Virus record (IMG/VR): IMGVR_UViG_3300021425_002620
Origin: a virus
Lineage: Duplodnaviria > Caudoviricetes
Reading direction: 5' to 3' (one strand)
DNA length: 64,000 bases
A model generated the notes under the pieces. The model was not told the origin of the DNA. It ran no database searches and saw only the letters and a list, made by a program, of their open reading frames with translations. The position numbers and the translations under genes are program-made. Shown here piece by piece: positions 49,058-64,000 of the stretch; the first letter of the stretch is position 1, and each line of letters starts with the position of its first letter.

Positions 49058-51730
49058 TCAATCTCCAAAGTCAAACAAACTACTAAATGTGTTGTGTTGT
49101 TTAGTATCTTCTAGATCATAATTCAACACACCAATCAAATTATCAAGTTTGTTATCAATAATTGTTTCTGCCATTGCTGCATCATCAAATGGCAATTCTT
49201 TAAACCACTCAGGTAATCTTAGCTCATCTGTTGGATAAGCAACACTTGTATAACCTAAGGGATTCTGTTTTAATTTACAAACAATAACTTTCATACCGTC
49301 AACGATTTCTTGTGAGTATTTGTCACCGTTCATACGTTTTAGTGTATTCCAATTAATGCTTGCCCGCACGTGGCCCGGCATATTTGCCTTGCCTTGTTTT
49401 TGTTCAAGACGCTGATAGTGTCCAATCTTGTTTGCACGTTTAGGCGAACCTTTTTCCCAACCTGGCATCTCTTGAAACTCTTTACGGAACTGTGTAATAC
49501 GTTCTAGTACTTCAGATTCTTCTGCATCTGTAAGCACCATTAAAAGTACTTCGCTTAAAAACTTTTGCATAAACACAGGAGTGTCTGACCTACGTAAGTC
49601 TAAGCCCATTGCCTTTACTTTACCAGGCTTACCGTCTTGATCTGTTCTAAAACCTTCATTGTCAACTACTAGTGCCGCATATCGCTTCTTAGTAATATAA
49701 AGACCACTCTGAGCAACAATTTCTCTACCTGCCGCAATAACGTCACTTCTGCTCTTTGGACAATGAAATGCTTGCAACATAAACTTTTCAAATGTTGTAT
49801 TTGCTTGTTCACAAACTTGATCATATAGTGCAATACATTTTTCAGTATTCCATTCAAGTTTACCAGTTCCTACGTCTTCCTGTAGTACAGGCCATGCACT
49901 AAAGTAAACAGAGTCAGTGTCGCCATATATTACTGCTTTACCGGTATGATCGTAATCACCTGTAATTACATTGTTAACTTCAGCACTCATATGTTTAACA
50001 ATTTGTCTACCAGTTAGTGTAGTTGACTGACCAATACGTTTATCGAAAAATCTACAGCCCGGATTCAAAATAGCACCATACAAGCTGTTCAAGTTAATCT
50101 TTTTAACTAACTGTCGCTTGTCCCAGTATTCTATTTCTGCATCAAGATTTGCGTCTTTTGCTTTTTTAAGTTTCTTTTGTAGTTCTTTACGTTCTGCGTA
50201 CCAGCGTTTAAGAATACCCGGAATAACACCTTCAAACTCTGTAGTAAAGATTGTACCATTTGCACTAAGCATCCAAGGCATCTGACTGTCAAATATAAGT
50301 TGATAAATCTCTGCACCACTTAGTACATCTGATCTACCATCCTCCCAATCAACAGTTAGCGCAACATCTTTACGTTGCTCCATTACTGCTTCATATTCTT
50401 CAGTTGAAAATCGTCCTTCCCAACTACCTGCGAAGCTCTTCTTCTTAAGAGTCATATCTTCGTGTACACGAGATTCAGTTATTTCAGGACGTATTTGTCC
50501 AACAATAGTTTCCGGTGCCATATTTAAAGCACGAATCACTGAAGGATATAGTGAGTTTAAGTCCATTGAACCAATCCACTTGTGCAGTCCTTTTTTTGGA
50601 AATGCAACATATGCTCCAGCAGCCTGTGTATTTTCTGTGTCGTCACGTTTGGGGCGATTAGGAACCTGTAGTCCTCTGTTATGTGCTTCGTTAATAATAC
50701 CTTGCTCTGTAACGGCAACAGCACCCATTGTTGTTTGAAGCATCACAGTATTTTCGTGTGCAATACTGTTACTAAGATCAATAAATCGTAGTTTCTTGTC
50801 TAGTTTGTCCAGTAGTGCAGTATCCTGAATGTTATATTCAATAAACTTACGGAAGTCGTTGTTATATAACTGATCCAGCGTACCTTCATATGGCACTTTG
50901 TTTTCGCCTACTTCAATCTCACCAATCGCATCTAATCGATATGAGTGACGTTCTTCATATGTATACTTACGATACAGTTCTAATGAGTCTAAGTGTACAC
51001 GACCTACTAAATCAAATGTAACTGCTTGCTTCCCATATTTTTCGTATTCACGCTTCTTAGGCAGTTGTCCCCATAGGCAAAACCGCCTTGTGTCATCTTT
51101 ACTGAGTACACGACTAGTTCTGTTTACAGTATACGGAATATCATAACCTTCACTGTTCCAACCACTTAGTATGTCAGCATCTTCAATTAGCGTTAAGAAG
51201 GTATCAATCATATCACCTTCACGTTCAAACAACATTACATTATCAATGCCTTCTAATTCTTTTTGTGCCTGATCCATAGTTAGTGTTTTAGGAGGAACAG
51301 CAAGACACACCATTGTTTCTAACCACTGCAAATACACAGAGATAGATGTAATTGGCATAAAAGGATCGCTTGGATCAGCAAAGCCACGCTCTGGATCAAA
51401 GTCAGTCTCAATATCGAAAAATGCAATATTTAGTTTAGGTGCATCTTGGTTAAGATAGTTTTCACTAAGACATTGAAAAAGTGGATTGATGTCGCTTTCG
51501 AATAAGTTCTTGCCTTTGTTAATAGCAACTTCTTTTCGAAAGTCTTTTGTGTTTTTACAAACAATACGTGATAGAGGATCTCCGTAAATACTTTTGTATT
51601 TGCCTCGAGGATCTTCGTAATAAAATGTATATTTGGCAGGATATTCTGTAAAGTGTCTTTTGCCATCGCGTCTTTCTACAACACGAATAATATCCTGATC
51701 GCGATCGAACATCGCATCTACGTATGGCAT
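49058..51730 (-). CDS. DNA polymerase family B (T4 gp43-like)
   Basis: ExoI FFDIETD, ExoII GWNS..YD, motif A DLNSLYPS, motif B KINLNSLYG, motif C YGDTDS. Confidence 0.97.
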   Translation of the reverse strand: MPYVDAMFDRDQDIIRVVERRDGKRHFTEYPAKYTFYYEDPRGKYKSIYGDPLSRIVCKNTKDFRKEVAINKGKNLFESDINPLFQCLSENYLNQDAPKLNIAFFDIETDFDPERGFADPSDPFMPITSISVYLQWLETMVCLAVPPKTLTMDQAQKELEGIDNVMLFEREGDMIDTFLTLIEDADILSGWNSEGYDIPYTVNRTSRVLSKDDTRRFCLWGQLPKKREYEKYGKQAVTFDLVGRVHLDSLELYRKYTYEERHSYRLDAIGEIEVGENKVPYEGTLDQLYNNDFRKFIEYNIQDTALLDKLDKKLRFIDLSNSIAHENTVMLQTTMGAVAVTEQGIINEAHNRGLQVPNRPKRDDTENTQAAGAYVAFPKKGLHKWIGSMDLNSLYPSVIRALNMAPETIVGQIRPEITESRVHEDMTLKKKSFAGSWEGRFSTEEYEAVMEQRKDVALTVDWEDGRSDVLSGAEIYQLIFDSQMPWMLSANGTIFTTEFEGVIPGILKRWYAERKELQKKLKKAKDANLDAEIEYWDKRQLVKKINLNSLYGAILNPGCRFFDKRIGQSTTLTGRQIVKHMSAEVNNVITGDYDHTGKAVIYGDTDSVYFSAWPVLQEDVGTGKLEWNTEKCIALYDQVCEQANTTFEKFMLQAFHCPKSRSDVIAAGREIVAQSGLYITKKRYAALVVDNEGFRTDQDGKPGKVKAMGLDLRRSDTPVFMQKFLSEVLLMVLTDAEESEVLERITQFRKEFQEMPGWEKGSPKRANKIGHYQRLEQKQGKANMPGHVRASINWNTLKRMNGDKYSQEIVDGMKVIVCKLKQNPLGYTSVAYPTDELRLPEWFKELPFDDAAMAETIIDNKLDNLIGVLNYDLEDTKQHNTFSSLFDFGD

Positions 51731-52375: not shown

Positions 52376-52404
52376 ATTATAGTATCTGATTAGATTAGTG
52401 TCAA
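52376..52404 (-). promoter_or_regulatory. Consensus sigma70-type promoter
   Basis: TTGACA (52404-52399), 17 bp, TATAAT (52381-52376), AGGAG RBS. Confidence 0.85.
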
Positions 52405-53973: not shown

Positions 53974-54465
53974 TTAGTTTCCGCCTTTGTTTGGACTTAT
54001 ATTTTTTGCTTTAATATTTTTTGCTGAAATCTTCTTTGTAGTAACTGCTTGTTCAGTTGCTTTTTTCTCAGCTAGTTTAGCATGTAAAGTATCTTTATAT
54101 TCTGATTCAGTCTTGCGAAGTTTCTTTTTACCACGCTTGCCACTTGCTTTTGCAGCATGTACCGCCTTACGATGTGCATCAGATTTAAATTTTCCTTCTG
54201 CAACTTCTTCACCTAGCTCACCTGTTGCTTCTTCGTAGTCTAGATGATGATATACACTGCCGATATAATCTGCTGACTTAGTAATTTTTGATTGAACCCA
54301 ACCTTCTAAGCCTTGTTCTTCGGATACACCTTTAAGCATGTCATGTAGTTTGATTGCATATTTTGCAATTTTATAAAGGTCTGAACGAGCCATTTGTACT
54401 TCGTGATCACGCTCTGCACGATCAGCTAGTTCGCCTAAACCTTCTTGTATTTCTGTTTTGTTCAT
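53974..54465 (-). CDS. Putative virion-internal protein
   Basis: MNKTEIQE-G N-terminus, VAE-G junction, Lys-rich tail. Confidence 0.55.
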   Translation of the reverse strand: MNKTEIQEGLGELADRAERDHEVQMARSDLYKIAKYAIKLHDMLKGVSEEQGLEGWVQSKITKSADYIGSVYHHLDYEEATGELGEEVAEGKFKSDAHRKAVHAAKASGKRGKKKLRKTESEYKDTLHAKLAEKKATEQAVTTKKISAKNIKAKNISPNKGGN

Positions 54466-54489
54466 TTATAATCTCCGGATCTTATATAC

Positions 54490-54496
54490 TATTTAT
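54490..54496 (-). promoter_or_regulatory. T4-type late promoter box
   Basis: ATAAATA over the upstream stop, leader with GGAG. Confidence 0.55.
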
Positions 54497-54828
54497 CTTT
54501 TGATAGGTTTGCCGCCCATGATATTATTTTTAACATCTAATGCATTTTTAGCAGTACCATCTGTATTTTTAACTTGTGGTGCTTTCGGCGCTCCGTATTT
54601 GCCCTTCTTTGTAGATTTAGCATGTGCATATGTTGGATTAACAACTGCGGCTATATTACCTGATGATGTTGCTCCTGCTGTTGCATCTTCTTTAACGTCT
54701 TCTGCATTACAATTACAGTGAGGACAGTCTGGTGGACATTTACAATCTTCTCTTTTTACGTCTGCTCCACAACATTTATCTGAACAATGTGTATCTCTTT
54801 TTTGTTCTAGTAATTCGCTTATTTTCAT
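54493..54828 (-). CDS. Putative virion-internal protein with Cys-rich segment
   Basis: MKISELLE-Q N-terminus, HCSDKCC...CKCPPDCPHCNC, VKE-DATAG junction. Confidence 0.6.
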   Translation of the reverse strand: MKISELLEQKRDTHCSDKCCGADVKREDCKCPPDCPHCNCNAEDVKEDATAGATSSGNIAAVVNPTYAHAKSTKKGKYGAPKAPQVKNTDGTAKNALDVKNNIMGGKPIKR

Positions 54829-54837
54829 TTTTCTTTC

Positions 54838-55074
54838 CTATCTCACAAATTGCTGTATTAGAAACATACAACTTAACATAAGTCCTAACAAACTAACTTG
54901 TAGTATAGAAAGACCTATAATAAGTTTTCCTTGTACATCTGCCCAATACTTTCCTTCTGTATTAATCCATTCCTTTTGTTCTTCCGGTGTGCAATCTCTA
55001 GGCTGCCAGATCATTCCAGGTTGTCTACCTGCTGTTTCATAAGGTGTGTAAAATTTCATTTCTGTTTGCTTCAT
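54838..55074 (-). CDS. Small membrane protein
   Basis: C-terminal hydrophobic helix. Confidence 0.65.
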   Translation of the reverse strand: MKQTEMKFYTPYETAGRQPGMIWQPRDCTPEEQKEWINTEGKYWADVQGKLIIGLSILQVSLLGLMLSCMFLIQQFVR

Positions 55075-55238
55075 TTTAAGTATTCTTTATAAGTTTTCCA
55101 ATAGTTTTGGCGTTCATTTGTGCTTGCTCGTCGAGCTTCATGTTCTTTAAGTTTTTTAATATAGTGACTTATATCTGTGTTATCTCTTGGATAAAGTTCT
55201 ACTATTTTTTCTTCCGTCCCGACTTCATATTTGCGCAC
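55071..55238 (-). CDS. Possible 55-aa protein, missing from the ORF track
   Basis: GTG/TTG start; ...ELYPRDNTDISHYIKKLKEHEARRASTNERQNYWKTYKEYLK; stop forms ATGA overlap with next gene and fills a 130-bp gap. Confidence 0.45.
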   Translation of the reverse strand: MRKYEVGTEEKIVELYPRDNTDISHYIKKLKEHEARRASTNERQNYWKTYKEYLK

Positions 55239-56773
55239 CAATGATACATCCTCGCTTTCTCACCTGAGTATTTTTTTGCTTTCTTACGTAAACTAGTTAC
55301 CGATCCTTTACAACTTGCACCAGCCTTTTTGACTCTACCAGGACGACTTTTGCCTTTTTTCTTTCCGTCAGCAAAATTTTCTGCAAGTTCAGCAACTTCA
55401 TCTGGCACTTCGAACTGCCATACAGTTGCTTTACTGTTCTGTGCCATCATTGCAGTAAGTCTTGTGTTACCACCTACAAGTTCTTTGTATCCGTCACTGT
55501 AAACAGCAACGATAGGCATTTCAACATCGCCACTTTTTAATTGTGCTAATGCTCTTGCTTGTTTGTTTTTATCTAAACTTTTAAATGAGTTAGGGTCTGC
55601 TGCATCTGTGTTATTAATATCTTTAGCACTTTTAATAGTTACTGCTTTGCCCTTCTTAGCAAGTTTAATCCATTCTTTTTTACCAAGTTTCTTAAACTCT
55701 GGATAGCGAGTTGCTTCTTCCCATTCTACATCAAACTTTGGTTTTACAAATTTTATACTGTTAGTAATATTTTCTTCTAGCCAACTTTCGTCTAACATAT
55801 CTTCTAATACAGCATCTGCCATGTGTACACGAGCATACTCTGCACCTGTTAAACGCAGTGCATCATATCTATGATGTCCGTTTACAATGCGTCCTTTTCG
55901 ATCAATTTGTAAAGGTGCATAATCGTCGTTTAAAACTTTTACTAACTGTCTGCCTAGTTTATGCCATTGACGTTCGCTTTGTACACTTTTTAATTTGTCT
56001 AATTTAATTTTTCCAAGAGGCCCGAACTTTTTAATTTGAGGAGGTGCTTCTCCACCTGTAGGTTTGTCATCAAAGTGTGCGTCTTTATAACCTTGTGCAT
56101 CTTGTACATCATATCCTATGCGTTTTAGTTGTTTCATAAGATACTTCATTTCTTTTTCACCAGCATATGGCGCAACCATTATATCTGGTTCATCAACATT
56201 ACCACCAGCTGGCACTGATTTTAAATTAGCCATATTAGTACCTAATTTAACAAAATCATATGCTGTATCTGATTTTGTTATGAAAGTATTGCTAGGATTT
56301 GGTATTAAAGAACCTTCGTTTGATACACTATCTATTGCTTTAGGACCGTCTGGATGTTTAGGATTTAAGACAACAGTTTCGCCATTCATTAGTTCTGAAA
56401 TGTTTGCTGCTTTACCTAAACTATCTAAAAGTCTATGTAATTTGTCTTTAGGATCGTAATTGCCGCTTTCGTAACCTTTTTTGCCACGAACTTCTACACG
56501 ATTCTTTCCTTTTTCTTTTATATGTAAAATATCGTAATCGTCCGTGCGTTCAAATTTTATAGCAACACTTTCAGTAAGTCCTAAATTAAACATAACGTTA
56601 GTTGACTTACCTTTGATTTTTTTGCTTAGTGTAGGAGGCCTTCCATCTTTGTCAACTTTGTTTCCAAACTTTGCAGCCTGTTTTTTGATCTCACCGGGAC
56701 CAACATCAGCAGTTTGATTTTGTTTAGTTATACGGCCAACGCCTGCTGCTTCTTTAATGTCGTCCCATCTCAT
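55202..56773 (-). CDS. Modular protein with two ParB/Srx-like domains, putative virion-internal polyprotein
   Basis: PLQIDRKGRIVNGHHRYDAL and PIVAVY...LVGGNTRLTAM; modules separated by LTE-S, LEE-N, LAE-N; MRWDDIKE-A N-terminus. Confidence 0.65.
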   Translation of the reverse strand: MRWDDIKEAAGVGRITKQNQTADVGPGEIKKQAAKFGNKVDKDGRPPTLSKKIKGKSTNVMFNLGLTESVAIKFERTDDYDILHIKEKGKNRVEVRGKKGYESGNYDPKDKLHRLLDSLGKAANISELMNGETVVLNPKHPDGPKAIDSVSNEGSLIPNPSNTFITKSDTAYDFVKLGTNMANLKSVPAGGNVDEPDIMVAPYAGEKEMKYLMKQLKRIGYDVQDAQGYKDAHFDDKPTGGEAPPQIKKFGPLGKIKLDKLKSVQSERQWHKLGRQLVKVLNDDYAPLQIDRKGRIVNGHHRYDALRLTGAEYARVHMADAVLEDMLDESWLEENITNSIKFVKPKFDVEWEEATRYPEFKKLGKKEWIKLAKKGKAVTIKSAKDINNTDAADPNSFKSLDKNKQARALAQLKSGDVEMPIVAVYSDGYKELVGGNTRLTAMMAQNSKATVWQFEVPDEVAELAENFADGKKKGKSRPGRVKKAGASCKGSVTSLRKKAKKYSGEKARMYHWCANMKSGRKKK

Positions 56774-56991
56774 TTTTTACGACTCCTAAGTCCGGGTGGA
56801 TATTCTTGGCCCTTCCAGTAAGGTCTACTAAACCAAAGTTTAAACCAATCTTCGTCACCTGGACGTAAATTCTTTTCTCTTTCTATACGTTGCTTTTCAG
56901 TACCTGTAACAGATATATTTTCTTGATAAGGAGTATATCCTTTAAACTCGTTAACACCTGCTAGTTTTTTAATGTACTCAAGCTCGTCCAT
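56770..56991 (-). CDS. Hypothetical protein
   Basis: 73-aa ORF with ATGA/TAATG overlaps; IKKLAGVNE motif. Confidence 0.7.
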   Translation of the reverse strand: MDELEYIKKLAGVNEFKGYTPYQENISVTGTEKQRIEREKNLRPGDEDWFKLWFSRPYWKGQEYPPGLRSRKK

Positions 56992-57929
56992 TATTTTTTA
57001 GCCATTTTAGTTGCTGTTGCATACATTACTGCTTCTGCATCTTTGCCATAACGCTTTTTAAAATCGCTTTTGTTTTTCTTCATGCCTTTAACATATTTTT
57101 CTTTATCTTTTTCTTCACCTTTAGAAAGTTCACGTTCAATAATTGCTAGTGCTTGTTTTATATCTTCTTTTGTTACAATATAACGTTTGCCTTTAGCTTT
57201 AATTTCTTTACCTGCAATATACTTTAGTAGTGCTGATAATTTTTCTACATCTTCTTCTCTGTTGACGTAGTCTTGAATCATATCTTTAATGTAGTTAATT
57301 AAACTACCTTTGTCTAGTATTAAGTCACCTTCTTCAACAGGTTCTACATCTTTTACACCCATGCCTTTGCGTACAGCATCATACATAGTTTGTGCTAGTT
57401 TCTTATCTGGTACACCTTGTGCAAATGTTTCTAATTCACCCGCAGCAGCCGCTGCTCTCATTTTGCTTGCACTCATGCCACTTACATCATCAGCATCTGG
57501 ATCACGTTCACCAGCACTTAGTACATTGATACTATCAAACTTAAACGGAACATTACCACTTTTATCAGGTTGACCGTTGTATGTATCAAATAATTTTTGG
57601 AATCCTGCTACACGATCACTTCCTGCTATAAAAATAACATCAGTATATCCTAAACCTTGTAACATTTCTAATGCTTGTACAGGTGTGCGTACACTTTCAT
57701 GACCAATGTTTATACCAGGAAAGAATTGTTTAGCAAACTTTAACTTCGTTGCAAAGTCTAGTGGATCTGTCTTAGGCTTTTGTGTTTGACTTAAGAATAG
57801 ATAATGATCGCCATCTTGCTTCTTGATAGCGTCTACTAATTTAGCATGACCTATTGTAGGTGGATTTAATCTACCAAATGCTAATACTGCTTGTTTTTTA
57901 GGTGCTTCGTATAACTCTCTTAATAACAT
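56991..57929 (-). CDS. HIGH-superfamily nucleotidyltransferase (phage cytidyltransferase/NMNAT-like)
   Basis: AFGRLNPPTIGH, IAGSDR, SAG.RD.D....GMSASKMR; start ATG 57929 (MLLRELYE-A). Confidence 0.85.
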   Translation of the reverse strand: MLLRELYEAPKKQAVLAFGRLNPPTIGHAKLVDAIKKQDGDHYLFLSQTQKPKTDPLDFATKLKFAKQFFPGINIGHESVRTPVQALEMLQGLGYTDVIFIAGSDRVAGFQKLFDTYNGQPDKSGNVPFKFDSINVLSAGERDPDADDVSGMSASKMRAAAAAGELETFAQGVPDKKLAQTMYDAVRKGMGVKDVEPVEEGDLILDKGSLINYIKDMIQDYVNREEDVEKLSALLKYIAGKEIKAKGKRYIVTKEDIKQALAIIERELSKGEEKDKEKYVKGMKKNKSDFKKRYGKDAEAVMYATATKMAKK

Positions 57930-57933
57930 TATC

Positions 57934-59034
57934 TTAATTAGGCTGCCAACGTGTTCTAGGTACAAGTTTAGTTTTGCTACCTAGTGCAACATATCCTTCA
58001 CCGCCTTTTTCTCCTCCTGTTGATGCTTTAACATCTGCATCAGCATTATCTAATTGATCTATAATACTATCTTTAGCAGTCATAACCTGCTTTATAAGAT
58101 CAAACATTTCTGGTAATGCTTTTGGATTAGCATCATTCATTGCTGCTAATTTTGCCTGTTGTCCTTGACTTACTTTACTAGTTTTTAACCAATCAAAAAA
58201 CCCTGTAGCAATCTTATCTAACTGCTGCGTACGAGTCATATGGTTCATATACGTATAAATTATTTGAGCTGGATTACTTAAACCTTGTGTACCTGCTAAA
58301 AATTGATCTATATCAGTTGCATACTTTTTAGCCTTTGCTCTTACAGCATCAACAACTTTAGTGTCTACATTTGGTTGATGTGTAACATATGTTTGTCCTA
58401 ATACTACTGCATCTTTTGAATTAAGTTCTGAAACATTTTCTATAGGGGTTCCTGATTTACTACCCCACTCTTCATACTTTTGATGTACTACTAAGCCTAC
58501 CTTAGACCCTGCTATACGCTTTCCTAAATCACTTGAAGGATCTACAGTATACTTTACTTTATTAGGTGTAAATTCTAAACCGTCGTTGCTTGATACAAAT
58601 GATTTACGTGGACTGTATAGTAAGTCACCGTATACGTAACCTCTAAAGTTAGGTGGTGTTGAATTTTTCATTACATCAAAAATTTCAGCCATTTCTTGAC
58701 CAAACTCTTTACGCCATGGTTCTTCTTCTACACCTTTACCTGAATTTTGAATAAAACGTGATAAATCCTGTGACGATGTTGATTTGTTTTTGCCCCAACC
58801 GTTTTTACCTACAAGTACAAATGTACCATCAGGTTCACGTCCCCAATAAATTGTTGGATTGCCGTCCCACTTAATAGCAACATCTCCGCTGTCGCTACCT
58901 AGTTTTTCTAGTATGTCTGCTGCTTCTAAAGCACCTTTAGATCCTTTAACAAATACCAAATCCTCAAGATGCTGATATTCGCGCCCAACTTTTGCTGCTT
59001 CGGTTAGAACGTGACGGAATTCAGCAAAGCGCAT
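57934..59034 (-). CDS. RNA-ligase-like covalent nucleotidyltransferase fold protein
   Basis: Motif I IKWDG, motif III YGDLL, motif IV EGYV, motif V KLV; MRFAEF..VLTE-A N-terminus. Confidence 0.6.
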   Translation of the reverse strand: MRFAEFRHVLTEAAKVGREYQHLEDLVFVKGSKGALEAADILEKLGSDSGDVAIKWDGNPTIYWGREPDGTFVLVGKNGWGKNKSTSSQDLSRFIQNSGKGVEEEPWRKEFGQEMAEIFDVMKNSTPPNFRGYVYGDLLYSPRKSFVSSNDGLEFTPNKVKYTVDPSSDLGKRIAGSKVGLVVHQKYEEWGSKSGTPIENVSELNSKDAVVLGQTYVTHQPNVDTKVVDAVRAKAKKYATDIDQFLAGTQGLSNPAQIIYTYMNHMTRTQQLDKIATGFFDWLKTSKVSQGQQAKLAAMNDANPKALPEMFDLIKQVMTAKDSIIDQLDNADADVKASTGGEKGGEGYVALGSKTKLVPRTRWQPN

Positions 59035-59369
59035 TAGTACTCTCCTGACTCTAGTTTTGGCATTTCCTCGTCATAAAGTTTTTCAATGATAGCATCTTCA
59101 TCTTCTTTTGTAAAGACACTTTGCGGATTGGCTGCGACATTAAATTTAGCACAATAATCTTTAATTGCACTTTTTATCATAGGTCTTGTGTTTGCTACAA
59201 AGTTACAATCATTGCCTTTAATGCTTTCGTCTTGCATTTTAACCATACAAGGGTAATAAGACTTGCGATAAAAATTAGGATCGTTTTTCATAAAGACCAT
59301 TAGGTCGTCAGTAACACTAAATGGTAATTCTTTTTCAAACTTTTTGCTAGTAAATTCATCTATACGCAT
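59034..59369 (-). CDS. Hypothetical protein, putative virion-internal
   Basis: True start ATG 59369 (MRIDEF...), directly after upstream stop. Confidence 0.7.
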   Translation of the reverse strand: MRIDEFTSKKFEKELPFSVTDDLMVFMKNDPNFYRKSYYPCMVKMQDESIKGNDCNFVANTRPMIKSAIKDYCAKFNVAANPQSVFTKEDEDAIIEKLYDEEMPKLESGEY

Positions 59370-59370
59370 A

Positions 59371-59940
59371 TTACCACTTCCTACATGACCAGTATCTTGC
59401 TTTTGTTCTTGGACCTGGATTATCACAGTTGTGTCTAGCACGGAATGAACGTCTACGTGCTGGGTTAGACTTTTTAATCTTCATGTTAGGATCGCCAAAG
59501 TTTACTTTTTTTACATTCTTAGTCTTTGGATCTCTAACATATACTTTAAATTTTTTAACATCTCCACGCATAGGTTTACCAAGTTTAACTTTACGTCCTT
59601 GATATTCTGCTTCGTCCATTTCGTCGTCATCATTGTACCACATTACACCATATTCTTCAAAGAAATCATCTCCGTCATATGTTTCTTCAATAATTTCTTC
59701 ATCAAGGTCTGTACTAATTTCTATATCAAAATCGTCAAATCCATTTTCAAACATATAGTTTGCTAGTCTTTCAGCATATTCTTCTGCTTCATCTTCTGAA
59801 AGCTCTCTCGCTAACGGTATTTGATAGGCGCTTGCACCTTGATCTGTTTCAAGTAATTCGTTACCTGGAAAGATAGATTCGTCTAAGTTTTCAGTTATGC
59901 TATCGTCTTTTTCAAATATTACTCTTACAAAATGTTCCAT
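59371..59940 (-). CDS. Acidic-N/basic-C two-part protein, putative virion-internal
   Basis: Very acidic first 110 aa, then DE-AEYQGRKV...VNFGDPNM...RRSFRARHNC...ARYWSC..W. Confidence 0.7.
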   Translation of the reverse strand: MEHFVRVIFEKDDSITENLDESIFPGNELLETDQGASAYQIPLARELSEDEAEEYAERLANYMFENGFDDFDIEISTDLDEEIIEETYDGDDFFEEYGVMWYNDDDEMDEAEYQGRKVKLGKPMRGDVKKFKVYVRDPKTKNVKKVNFGDPNMKIKKSNPARRRSFRARHNCDNPGPRTKARYWSCRKW

Positions 59941-61176: not shown

Positions 61177-61845
61177 TTATTTATCAATATCTTGCTTACA
61201 TACTAATTTATCTATTCGCCGAATAGAAGGTGCAATCATTAATTTTATAAGATTTAAAACACGTTCGTCACGAGCATAAAAATAATAATTTGCACAGTGT
61301 AGAGATTCACGAATTGCATCTCTACATACAACACCCATTTTTACTTTATCTTCGTTTTTATCTAACCAAGTGTTAAATCCAGGATCAACATTATAGTCTC
61401 CAAATGTAATTTTATAGTCATAACCAGTATGTTCGTCAACTATAATTGTATTTGGCACAACATGTTTAACAAGTTCTTTAGGCGGCGCCGAAAAACTTAT
61501 AGGATCAGAAATTTTAGTTGCAAATAATAATAACCAAGATTTGTCATTGCTGTATACATGTACACTAGGGTGCTCGATCCTTATTTTATAATCAACATTT
61601 GTATTTTTAAGTTCGTGATATATTGCAACACATTCATAAAATATATGAGGTTCTATAGTAAACTGACGGTAGCCGGTAGATCTAACTAACGGCATACCTT
61701 TTTCTGATCTATGATAAAGTTCGTCTAATACTTCTTTAGCATAATTAAAATTTTTATCTCTAAAAATTGTTGCTAGAGAGTTACGAAAAACAAATTTGTA
61801 AAGATATTTGTTATAGAACAGTTTATTTGATTCAGATTGTAACAA
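61177..61845 (-). CDS. Hypothetical protein
   Basis: 222-aa ORF overlapping the clpA stop. Confidence 0.7.
   Translation of the reverse strand: MLQSESNKLFYNKYLYKFVFRNSLATIFRDKNFNYAKEVLDELYHRSEKGMPLVRSTGYRQFTIEPHIFYECVAIYHELKNTNVDYKIRIEHPSVHVYSNDKSWLLLFATKISDPISFSAPPKELVKHVVPNTIIVDEHTGYDYKITFGDYNVDPGFNTWLDKNEDKVKMGVVCRDAIRESLHCANYYFYARDERVLNLIKLMIAPSIRRIDKLVCKQDIDK
61178..61184 (-). promoter_or_regulatory. T4-type late promoter box, leaderless arrangement
   Basis: ATAAATA then 5 nt (atagt) then ATG at 61172. Confidence 0.65.
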
Positions 61846-64000
61846 GGGATTCCTCTACACACTCTAGTAATAGACTGTCAGAATCCTCTGTAGTTGTAAC
61901 AGTTACAGTTCCGCCATTTTTCAAATTACCAAACAGTAGTTCTTTTGATAGCGGTCTTTTAATTTCGTTATCAATAACACGCTGTAAAGGTCTTGCACCC
62001 ATTTTAGGATCAAATCCTTTGTCTACTAAGTAGTCGAGTGCTTCATCTGAAACTTTAATATTAACTCCTTTGTCTGTAACCATTTTTCTAAGTTCGACAA
62101 GAAACTTACCAACAATTTTAAGCATAACTTCTTTGTTCAACTTACCAAATGTAATTACACCATCTAGTCTATTTCGAAATTCTGGACTGAAGAACTTTTT
62201 AAGTTCAGTATCTTCGTAGTCTTTTTCAACTTCTTCGTTAAAGCCAATAGCATTTTTGTCTGCATCTTTGGCTCCAAGATTAGTTGTAAGAATCAAAATA
62301 GCATTTCTTGCATCAGCTTCTTTACCATTTGATCCTGTAACTTTACCATTGTCCATAATTTGTAGCAAAATTTGAGAAACATCTGGATGTGCTTTTTCAA
62401 TCTCATCTAATAGCAATACACAATTAGGACTTTCTTGTAATTTTGTAATTAACTGGCCTGCATTGTCTTCAAAACCTACATAACCCGGAGGCGAACCAAT
62501 TAATTTAGCAACTGAATGCTTTTCTTGATATTCACTCATATCAAATCGAACTAATTTAACACCTAGTTGAGTTGATAGTTGCTTTGCAGTTTCTGTTTTA
62601 CCTACACCTGTTGGACCCATAAATACAAATGAACCTACAGGCTTGTCATCAGGTTTCAAACCTGCTTGTGCAACTAGAATTTTATCAACAATATTATCAA
62701 TTGCTTCATCTTGACCGTACACTTCTGCTTTAAGATTTACTTCAAGATTAGCAAGTCCTGAAGTTTCTTTTTCAGCAATGTTTTCAACAGGCATATTAAT
62801 CATTTTAGCCAGTTCGAACTGTACTTCTTCTTCAGTTACTAACTTTTCAACTTCGGGGTCTTTTAGTTTAAATCTTGCACATGCAACATCAATAAGGTCA
62901 ATTGCTTTATCTGGTAACTTTTTATCACTTTGATATTTAATTGATAGTTTGACTGCCGCTTCGATTGCTTGTTCGGTAATACCGGTGCTATGAAATTCTT
63001 CGTAATACTTTTTAATACCACGTAAGATGTCTTTAGTTACTTCCGGAGTTGGCTCGTCGACAGTTACACGTTGGAATCTACGCATCAATGCACGATCCTT
63101 TTCAAAAGTTTTGCGATATTCTTCCCAAGTTGTACTTGCTACAACTTTAATATCACCTTTTGATAGTGCAGGTTTTAGCATATTTGCTAAATCATTTGTT
63201 TTGTCGCCACCACCGGCTCCGGCACCGTTCATCATGTGTGCTTCATCAATGAACATTACAGTCTTGCCTTTTTTCTGTAATGCTTTAATGACAAGTTTTA
63301 AACGTTCTTCAAAATCACCTCTATACTTTGAACCTGCAAGCATTGCGCCGATGTCAAGATTGTATACTTCGTACTCTTGTAGGAACGGAGGAACATTATC
63401 ATTAACAATATTATAAGCAAGGCCTTCAGCAATAGCAGTTTTACCAACACCAGGATCGCCTACAAGGATAACATTGTTTTTATTACGGCGTCCTAATGCC
63501 AAGGCAATACTTTCTAATTCTTCAGCACGACCAATAATTGGATCAATCTTATCTTTATTTGCTTCTTCGTTTAAGTTAGTTGTAAATGCACGTAGAGCTT
63601 TTTGCATTGCTCCAGACATTTCTTCGTCTTCAATTTCGTTTTCAACTTCTGAACTAATATATTCACTAAATGTTTCTTTTGAAACACCTGCCTTTTCAAT
63701 CCAGTAAGTTGCAATAGATTTTTTCTCGTTAAGAACACTTAGAAAAACATCACTTAGTTCTATGTTATTTCTTCCAATAAACAAAACTTGTGTAAAGGCC
63801 CTGTTTAAAACACGCTCAACTGTTTGTGTTTTTTTAGGTTTCCATTTTTTAATCTCAGGATCCATTTTAATATCATCGCACTGAGTTTTTAGATAATTTT
63901 CAAGATTGCTTTTAATAAAAACAGGATCTGCACCATACCCTTTAATAATAGTTTCAAAAGATGAATGACACATTAGAGCAAACACAAGATGCTCTAGTGT
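61832..64000 (-). CDS. clpA: ClpA/ClpB-family Hsp100 ATPase (start lies beyond the window)
   Basis: Two AAA+ modules GDPGVGKT/FIDE and GPTGVGKT/LLDE, RFDMSEY, GARPL; frame stays open to base 64000 (TLEHLVFAL, Clp N-domain); no long ClpB middle domain. Confidence 0.9.
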   Translation of the reverse strand, partial: TLEHLVFALMCHSSFETIIKGYGADPVFIKSNLENYLKTQCDDIKMDPEIKKWKPKKTQTVERVLNRAFTQVLFIGRNNIELSDVFLSVLNEKKSIATYWIEKAGVSKETFSEYISSEVENEIEDEEMSGAMQKALRAFTTNLNEEANKDKIDPIIGRAEELESIALALGRRNKNNVILVGDPGVGKTAIAEGLAYNIVNDNVPPFLQEYEVYNLDIGAMLAGSKYRGDFEERLKLVIKALQKKGKTVMFIDEAHMMNGAGAGGGDKTNDLANMLKPALSKGDIKVVASTTWEEYRKTFEKDRALMRRFQRVTVDEPTPEVTKDILRGIKKYYEEFHSTGITEQAIEAAVKLSIKYQSDKKLPDKAIDLIDVACARFKLKDPEVEKLVTEEEVQFELAKMINMPVENIAEKETSGLANLEVNLKAEVYGQDEAIDNIVDKILVAQAGLKPDDKPVGSFVFMGPTGVGKTETAKQLSTQLGVKLVRFDMSEYQEKHSVAKLIGSPPGYVGFEDNAGQLITKLQESPNCVLLLDEIEKAHPDVSQILLQIMDNGKVTGSNGKEADARNAILILTTNLGAKDADKNAIGFNEEVEKDYEDTELKKFFSPEFRNRLDGVITFGKLNKEVMLKIVGKFLVELRKMVTDKGVNIKVSDEALDYLVDKGFDPKMGARPLQRVIDNEIKRPLSKELLFGNLKNGGTVTVTTTEDSDSLLLECVEESLVTI

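Follow-up and report, generated by a model that had tools for sequence, protein, structure and literature searches.

What do two adjacent nucleotidyltransferase-like genes, lying among small genes that share a short N-terminal leader, do for the phage that carries them? This question is raised by a stretch of 64,000 nucleotides of Caudoviricetes DNA (IMG/VR record IMGVR_UViG_3300021425_002620), referred to in its whole length as the window, whose source is an uncultured marine jumbo phage. On its minus strand, which also bears every feature given below for the two genes, gene A (57934..59034, 366 amino acids (aa)) is followed by gene B (56991..57929, 312 aa). An earlier note on this DNA had proposed that they constitute a virion-delivered module of two enzymes, acting on RNA ends or on NAD-type nucleotides. 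It was found that A and B are functionally linked and represent two thirds of a three-enzyme module, whose members come from three different superfamilies: the ligase-type DUF6267, a HIGH-motif enzyme resembling NMNAT and PPAT, and a Pol-beta-type enzyme. The explanation that we favor, to which we give slightly less than an even chance, is that this conserved phage module of nucleotidyltransferases processes nucleic-acid ends and is possibly injected from the virion in jumbo-phage lineages.

Gene A is a member of DUF6267 (PF19782; E 6e-28, 98.6 bits against a gathering cut-off of 27), the match extending over residues 21-362 of the protein and positions 5-366 of the 376 in the profile. In an alignment of 67 diverse homologues, which are 27-46% identical to the query, H22, K55, D57, G58, G65, K321 and K356 are invariant, and E24, D25, W56, R66, D137, P157, N158, Y162, E346, G347 and R360 are conserved in at least 90%, V358 also being nearly invariant. 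The first of these positions form a QHLEDL box (58957..58974, holding H22, E24 and D25) ahead of motif I, KWDG (residues 55-58, 58861..58872), in which K55 is the predicted nucleotidylated lysine. A motif III-like YGDLLY (residues 135-140, 58615..58632) surrounds D137, the PN..Y of P157, N158 and Y162 occupies the position of ligase motif IIIa, and motif IV, GGEGYV (344-349), is followed by motif V, SKTKLVPR (353-360), within 57955..58005. Thus, the ligase order that had been noticed earlier for KWDG, GD, EGYV and K was confirmed as I, III, IIIa, IV, V, with all motifs conserved in at least 90% except for K354 of K354-x-K356, an assignment based on order and conservation and not on residue-level superposition. 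The protein terminates 6 residues past motif V and, therefore, has neither an OB domain nor motif VI, which makes gene A like RNA ligases and not like DNA ligases or capping enzymes.

The structural comparison agreed with the ligase-like fold without OB domain that had been claimed for gene A. The AlphaFold2 (AF2) model reached a pLDDT of 94.7, residues 1-14 (below 50) being its sole low-confidence part, and it was compared exhaustively with 48,161 representative chains using VIA-align. The top 23 rows were all covalent nucleotidyltransferases (RNA and DNA ligases and a capping enzyme), with Z of 5.0-6.6 and root-mean-square deviations of 4.2-5.9 Å over 142-191 residues; they included NgrRnl (6.6), REL1 (6.1), Trl1 (5.9), T4 Rnl2 (5.7), T4 and T7 DNA ligases (5.4), T4 Rnl1 (5.3) and the vaccinia capping enzyme (5.0). 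Taken with the motif pattern, so uniform a list argues convincingly for a ligase/capping-type (lysine) nucleotidyltransferase fold of gene A, at Z values that are modest and for a predicted model. Between the sheet core and motif IV, the model also predicts a six-helix insertion (residues 225-329, 58048..58362) that contains the invariant K321, and whose topology was not found among known ligases. Additionally, two of the 67 family members matched Pfam RNA_lig_T4_1 weakly, and a shape search of the ESM Atlas with gene A returned DUF6267 clusters only. In the same atlas, a 65-member viral cluster was observed in which DUF6267 is fused to a Cu/Zn superoxide dismutase domain.

Regarding gene B, the listed open reading frame begins at TTG 57965, but translation almost certainly starts at ATG 57929, judging from the homologues, because 117 of 120 open with an M-x-L-R-E-L-x-E leader. 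The resulting protein consists of a HIGH-motif nucleotidyltransferase domain (residues 1-195) and a helical C-terminal module. The GRLNPPTIGH stretch (residues 19-28, 57846..57875) contains the (H/T)xGH nucleotide-binding motif as TIGH (25-28), with G19 and P23 invariant and R20, N22, P24, G27 and H28 conserved in at least 90% of homologues, and SASKMR (residues 153-158, 57456..57473) is a second motif of the ISxTxxR type, with S153, A154, M157 and R158 at the same level; the cyanophage homologues show GRFQPPTTGH and ISGTKMR in these places. Foldseek gave 76 matches in the PDB at E <=0.001, among them PPAT, NadD and NadM at E about 1e-5 (TM by target 0.59-0.73), and the protein matched phrog_3041 (E 5e-51), labeled 'cytidyltransferase' in PHROGs. 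That gene B has the Rossmann-like fold of the HIGH-motif nucleotidyltransferase superfamily, as the two motifs had first suggested, is certain. Its placement within the superfamily is less defined by the profiles: the Pfam model PF01467 (CTP_transf_like) gave 14.3 bits against a cut-off of 21 for gene B of the window and 32.6, 27.4 and 25.0 bits for homologues above this cut-off, and among the NCBIfam equivalogs for NMN/NaMN adenylyltransferase and PPAT the best score of gene B was 15 bits against a cut-off of 164, the others being likewise far below.

The C-terminal module of gene B (56991..57317) is variable, since homologues swap this third of the protein for Sigma70 region 4, a ParB_N-like domain, DUF5824 or unknown segments; the Sigma70 region 4 matches lie above the Pfam cut-off (40-59 bits), and those of ParB_N below it. 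Four gene B homologues (L076:8887-10032, P0306, P0337 and P0384) terminate in a close copy of Sigma70_r4, which, as far as the sequence goes, suggests docking on RNA polymerase or on –35 DNA. In a relative of the phage studied here (L086:34-2061), the gene B homologue is a single 676-aa protein with a C-terminal ParB_N-like domain (weak, below the Pfam cut-off), which joins what the window holds as separate genes, B and a 523-aa ParB-like gene. The last 40-57 residues of gene B match phrog_12788 and phrog_727, and the last ~40 residues (56991-57140, minus strand; ..KRYGKDAEAVMYATATKMAKK) are a mobile tail that recurs on homologues of different architecture; in the same cluster, the ParB-like protein and a 163-aa protein also terminate in basic tails of a similar kind.

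The linkage between the two genes was evident at several levels. In PHROGs, phrog_455 spans both A and B proteins; in Pfam, DUF6267 and CTP_transf_like are fused in both orders in metagenomic proteins; and an exhaustive search of 50%-identity representatives with DUF6267 yielded many long proteins. When 150 representative DUF6267 clusters were scanned with Pfam and our own hidden Markov models (HMMs), the HIGH domain was found in 30, a Pol-beta domain in 37 and both in 17, the domain orders of the triple fusions including Pol-beta-A-HIGH, HIGH-Pol-beta-A and A-HIGH-Pol-beta. The third partner is a small Pol-beta-type nucleotidyltransferase with a G-S...SGDLD...QTD motif, recognized by its G-S...D-x-D...D motifs and by weak NTP_transf_2 and pol-beta-palm leads. 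Its regularity was verified in 81 close loci, namely the window and 80 viral contigs that encode an A homologue at 66-100% identity, all of which hold a partner gene 0-153 nucleotides (nt) from A on the same strand. In 69 of these loci the partner is the Pol-beta gene, directly upstream of A, and in 12 it is the HIGH gene, directly downstream, so that the two-enzyme module of the earlier note had to be extended to three enzymes. In G001, a 236-kb relative with the Pol-beta-A arrangement, the HIGH gene lies 105 kb away. The A-B pair was also found in cultured phages, where the genes are adjacent (ACG-2014j), fused (S-PM2 d138) or separated by one small gene (Melnitz). These observations demonstrate a three-way linkage of ligase-type, HIGH-type and Pol-beta-type enzymes. 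Co-folding of A with the catalytic domain of B gave a score of 0.00, which counts neither for nor against binding. Four triple fusions (P0162:810-1118, P0192:807-1259, P0214:912-1267 and P0234:861-1158) share a further helical, acidic C-terminal domain with conserved STGIN..L..II and TGR..A...DYLITNLKLYFDKFE boxes; a kinase identity was considered for this domain and ruled out, as it lacks a Walker A motif and matches no Pfam family.

The leaders of A and B belong to a wider pattern. N-termini of the form M-[KRL..]-x-x-[DEQ]-[FILMV] occur in 7 of the 10 genes at 53-60 kb and in none of the 73 genes elsewhere in the window (Fisher p = 3e-8, for a pattern that was chosen after looking at the sequences), which shows that the leaders are a real feature and that, within the window, they do not extend beyond this gene cluster (53974..59369, minus strand, tightly packed and co-directional). 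Outside it, 117 of 120 gene B homologues have the pattern, and so do 48 of the 85 representative clusters in which the DUF6267 domain is N-terminal, whereas internal Met positions show it at about 1.2%; 19 of the 85 clusters begin directly at the domain, as does the ACG-2014j homologue. It is known that in T4 internal proteins the first 10 residues are a propeptide for targeting to the prohead core, which is removed after Glu (PMC9026906, PMC3012670). The leader of A (residues 1-13, MRFAEF..LTE12 then A, 58996..59034) resembles this capsid-targeting sequence (CTS), and, by analogy, its LTE/A end and the LYE/A end of the leader of B (MLLRELYE8 then A, 57903..57929) fit the T4 pattern. In addition, phage PA5oct encodes a Pol-beta partner homologue, gp253, whose record assigns it to the virion and cites electrospray ionization tandem mass spectrometry, ESI-MS/MS (PMC7318152). 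The syntenic small protein gp259 has a virion annotation as well, and the gp253-gp259 area is a block of small proteins, most with a mass spectrometry (MS) note, several of which open with MRLDEI, (V)KIKDI or MFLKDV. From the T4 analogy and the virion mass spectrometry of the PA5oct Pol-beta homologue, we infer that the leaders would serve packaging. Within the same block of MS-detected virion proteins, gp256 (L083:2306-3646), a hypothetical protein of 446 aa, shows KHLDNL, EKIDGY and VEGYV..VKIV in the order of DUF6267, and by these motifs it is a possible, very distant member of this family. A search for the T4 prohead protease with PF03420 matched neither the three partial relatives nor the controls, and it therefore says nothing on the presence of the protease.

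On this basis, a sequence of events can be proposed for the module. Gene A would charge K55 with a nucleotide and transfer it to a 5'-phosphate end, after which it would either seal this end to a 3'-OH or leave it capped, and the Pol-beta partner would extend 3' ends with nucleotides. Gene B would join a nucleoside monophosphate (NMP) to a phosphorylated acceptor through a phosphoanhydride; this acceptor could be the phosphorylated end or else a small cofactor on which the module draws. In the jumbo-phage lineages, the proteins with T4-CTS-like leaders would probably be packaged in the head, undergo trimming and enter the cell along with the injected DNA. The role in nucleic-acid ends is drawn from the constant ligase-type and Pol-beta-type partners, from the HAD DxDxT phosphatase domain that one DUF6267 fusion also carries, from the tails of gene B homologues and from the helicase, primase or polymerase genes that adjoin loci of the A/B type; what we infer from this context is the nature of the substrate (DNA or RNA), the reaction of B, and the packaging and cleavage steps.

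Several observations weigh against this proposal. With respect to the ligase assignment, gene A matches ligase structures at a modest Z (below 8), its comparison with the PDB by sequence and by profile yielded no solved ligase, and Foldseek against the PDB gave E of 0.03 or worse, in weak rows mixed with CorA; we found no literature on DUF6267 and no biochemical data for any member. With respect to end processing, the HAD phosphatase occurs in one cluster only, no polynucleotide kinase was found, and we know of no precedent for a HIGH-family enzyme acting on a nucleic-acid end. With respect to the virion, a comparison of the A family with PA5oct gp256 by hhalign gave 18% probability, its KxDG and EGYV..K having been seen by eye, and neither gp256 nor S-PM2 d138 is annotated as a virion protein. 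The cyanophage homologues are leaderless, as examined in ACG-2014j, and are located in replication modules. Moreover, L-x-E-[AG] ahead of the A domain is also found in internal copies within fusions; the element may thus be something other than a cleavage site and belong in part to the domain. Of the virion delivery claimed in the earlier note, the shared leaders stand, and delivery itself may apply to the jumbo-phage lineages.

The genomic context in cyanophages raises an alternative, in which DUF6267, with help from its partners, is the phage's own intracellular ligase, sealing nicks in replication and repair, with leaders unrelated to packaging. In the complete Kyanoviridae genomes that carry the pair (ACG-2014j, S-PM2 and Melnitz), A and B are found between helicase/MazG and primase genes, and no ATP-dependent (PF01068) or NAD-dependent (PF01653) DNA ligase was detected. 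However, PA5oct and G001 encode a canonical PF01068 ligase, for which reason a replicative role cannot be general, being conceivable in cyanomyophages; gene A lacks both an OB domain and motif VI, its cluster is the one place in the window where the leaders occur, and the Pol-beta homologue is virion-associated in PA5oct. Taken together, this alternative appears unlikely. A different role would follow if B were an NMN/NaMN adenylyltransferase rebuilding NAD+ to counter the defences that deplete it, while A used the dinucleotide as AMP donor or acted independently. The motifs GRxxPxTxGH and, in cyanophages, ISGTxxR resemble those of NadM/NadR-type NMNATs, the weak best family matches of B are NMNAT or NaMNAT models, and NadD and NadM are among its structural matches; yet the family scores remain far below the cut-offs, as given above, and PPAT matches B equally well. 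Phage NAD+ reconstitution pathways NARP1-3 need Adps with Namat, Nampt with Nmnat, or PnuC with a NadR-like enzyme, and a Pfam and PHROGs scan of the neighbouring genes revealed no Nampt, Adps/Namat, PnuC or ribosylnicotinamide kinase, the constant partners being ligase-type and Pol-beta-type enzymes. The NAD-rebuilding role put forward earlier thus found no support in the neighbourhood or in the profiles, and we regard it as improbable.

The same enzymes could act on intact RNA instead of repairing breaks, the trio marking transcripts at the polymerase by a 3' tail and, on the 5' side, by a nucleotidyl group similar to a cap. In its virion-delivered form, A would cap 5' ends, the Pol-beta enzyme would tail 3' ends, the HIGH enzyme would make a dinucleotide or activated donor, and some phages would dock the machine on host RNA polymerase via sigma-70 region 4. 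This is compatible with the match of A to a capping enzyme (Z 5.0) without a domain for step-3 sealing, with the existence of poly(A) and poly(U) polymerases among Pol-beta enzymes, and with the sigma-70 region 4 on several B homologues; on the other hand, B of the window has no sigma domain, and no triphosphatase or methyltransferase partner was seen. We accord only a slim chance to both the general idea and its virion-delivered form. Finally, it would be barely credible that catalytically dead enzyme folds have been reused as structural or scaffold cargo filling the head: the genes do have small proteins with leaders as neighbours and are preceded by fibre and virion genes, but the positions of the catalytic motifs are all invariant or nearly so across sequences with 27-46% identity to the query. 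The processing of nucleic-acid ends by three linked enzymes remains the explanation that we prefer.

The surroundings of the pair are those of a long, tightly packed and co-directional gene run, unbroken on the minus strand from 64 kb to 52.4 kb of the window. It comprises a ClpA-like ATPase, a virion-type protein, a fibre/baseplate-connector-like protein, small proteins, genes A and B, a 73-aa protein, the ParB-like 523-aa protein (55202-56773) and further small proteins, and it stops just ahead of a T4-type DNA polymerase (49058-51730). This polymerase is closest to those of the jumbo phages Phosso, Atu_ph07, Vibrio 2.275.O and the Rak2-like group (43-50% identity), and the closest relatives of gene B are found on contigs of up to 187-189 kb. 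The gene order of the cluster is maintained in related viral contigs. At the head of the run, the ClpA-like protein is an AAA+ unfoldase (61832-63985, minus strand; phrog_4871, E 2.5e-243), and the order ClpA, p222, ..., A is likewise maintained. A 189-aa protein (59371-59940, minus strand; phrog_7595) ends in a Cys/Arg-rich box (..RARHNCDNPGPRTKARYWSCRKW), and the DUF6267 homologue P0135 carries a related one (..INCANPKGFSQKAHCAGRKK) as an insert in its leader.

Concerning expression, the ATG of gene A overlaps the stop codon of the preceding gene (TAATG), with AGGAGA upstream, and the ATG of gene B lies 4 nt past the stop of gene A. No copy of the T4 late-promoter box TATAAATA lies in the region, and across the window the box is depleted (3 found versus 11.9 expected), so that late expression is not demonstrable in this way; scans for sigma-70 promoters and terminators remained at chance level. 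The only sizeable gap of the region holds a perfect sigma-70 consensus (TTGACA, 17 nt, TATAAT; 52376-52404, minus strand), which precedes a small gene and the DNA polymerase.

DUF6267 is abundant: at 90% identity, a single length band comprises 1,475 clusters, and at 50% identity there are at least 1,000 representatives, with marine jumbo phages, cyanomyophages and Melnitz-type phages among the carriers. It is also tractable by experiment, given its ligase-type active site, its natural triple fusions with two other nucleotidyltransferases, and the availability of single-chain versions and of cultured carriers (S-PM2, Melnitz and possibly PA5oct). If end healing or marking and injection are both true, the module would represent a new kind of pre-packaged kit for counter-defence or genome maintenance, and it might explain the missing DNA ligase of cyanomyophages. 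Poxviruses and giant viruses package capping and polyadenylation enzymes, and an RNA-end marking machine, if true, would be their counterpart in bacterial viruses.

Among known systems, the ATP-dependent RNA ligases without OB domain (T4 Rnl2, REL1 of T. brucei, NgrRnl of Naegleria and the adenylyltransferase domains of fungal Trl1 and T4 Rnl1) are the best structural matches of gene A (Z 5.3-6.6 over 156-191 residues), and they share with it the core of KxDG, acidic motif III, EGYV and K-x-K, with EGYV as motif IV as in T4 Rnl2. Unlike these ligases, gene A has no detectable sequence homology to them and no N- or C-terminal accessory domain, and it presents features of its own, namely a 105-residue helical bundle before motif IV and an H-x-E-D box before motif I. 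The multi-enzyme logic of end healing and sealing is shared with T4 Pnkp and Rnl1 and with bacterial Pnkp/Hen1. The Pnkp phosphatase type recalls the HAD DxDxT domain of one DUF6267 fusion, and the Pnkp ligase domain (4drf) is a weak structural match to gene A (Z 4.2); in contrast to the Pnkp systems, the partners here are Pol-beta-type and HIGH-type nucleotidyltransferases, and no kinase or methyltransferase is among them.

A small Pol-beta-family enzyme combined with a ligase on the same broken strand is a feature of Pol X and ligase of African swine fever virus (ASFV) and of the terminal uridylyltransferase (TUTase) and REL1 of the trypanosome editosome, to which the module would be similar; its Pol-beta partner is known here from sequence motifs and is absent from this window. 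Gene B shares the Rossmann-like fold, (H/T)xGH and ISxTxxR with the NMNAT/NaMNAT/PPAT enzymes (NadM, NadR, NadD and CoaD), from which it differs in being linked to nucleic-acid enzymes and in having homologues whose tails are DNA- or polymerase-binding. Finally, as in the T4 internal proteins and Alt, whose CTS is cut by gp21, unrelated proteins encoded in one locus carry a short M-K/R-x-x-E-F/L...[LI]-x-E leader, which differs from that of T4 in its varying length and is known here from the gene sequences.

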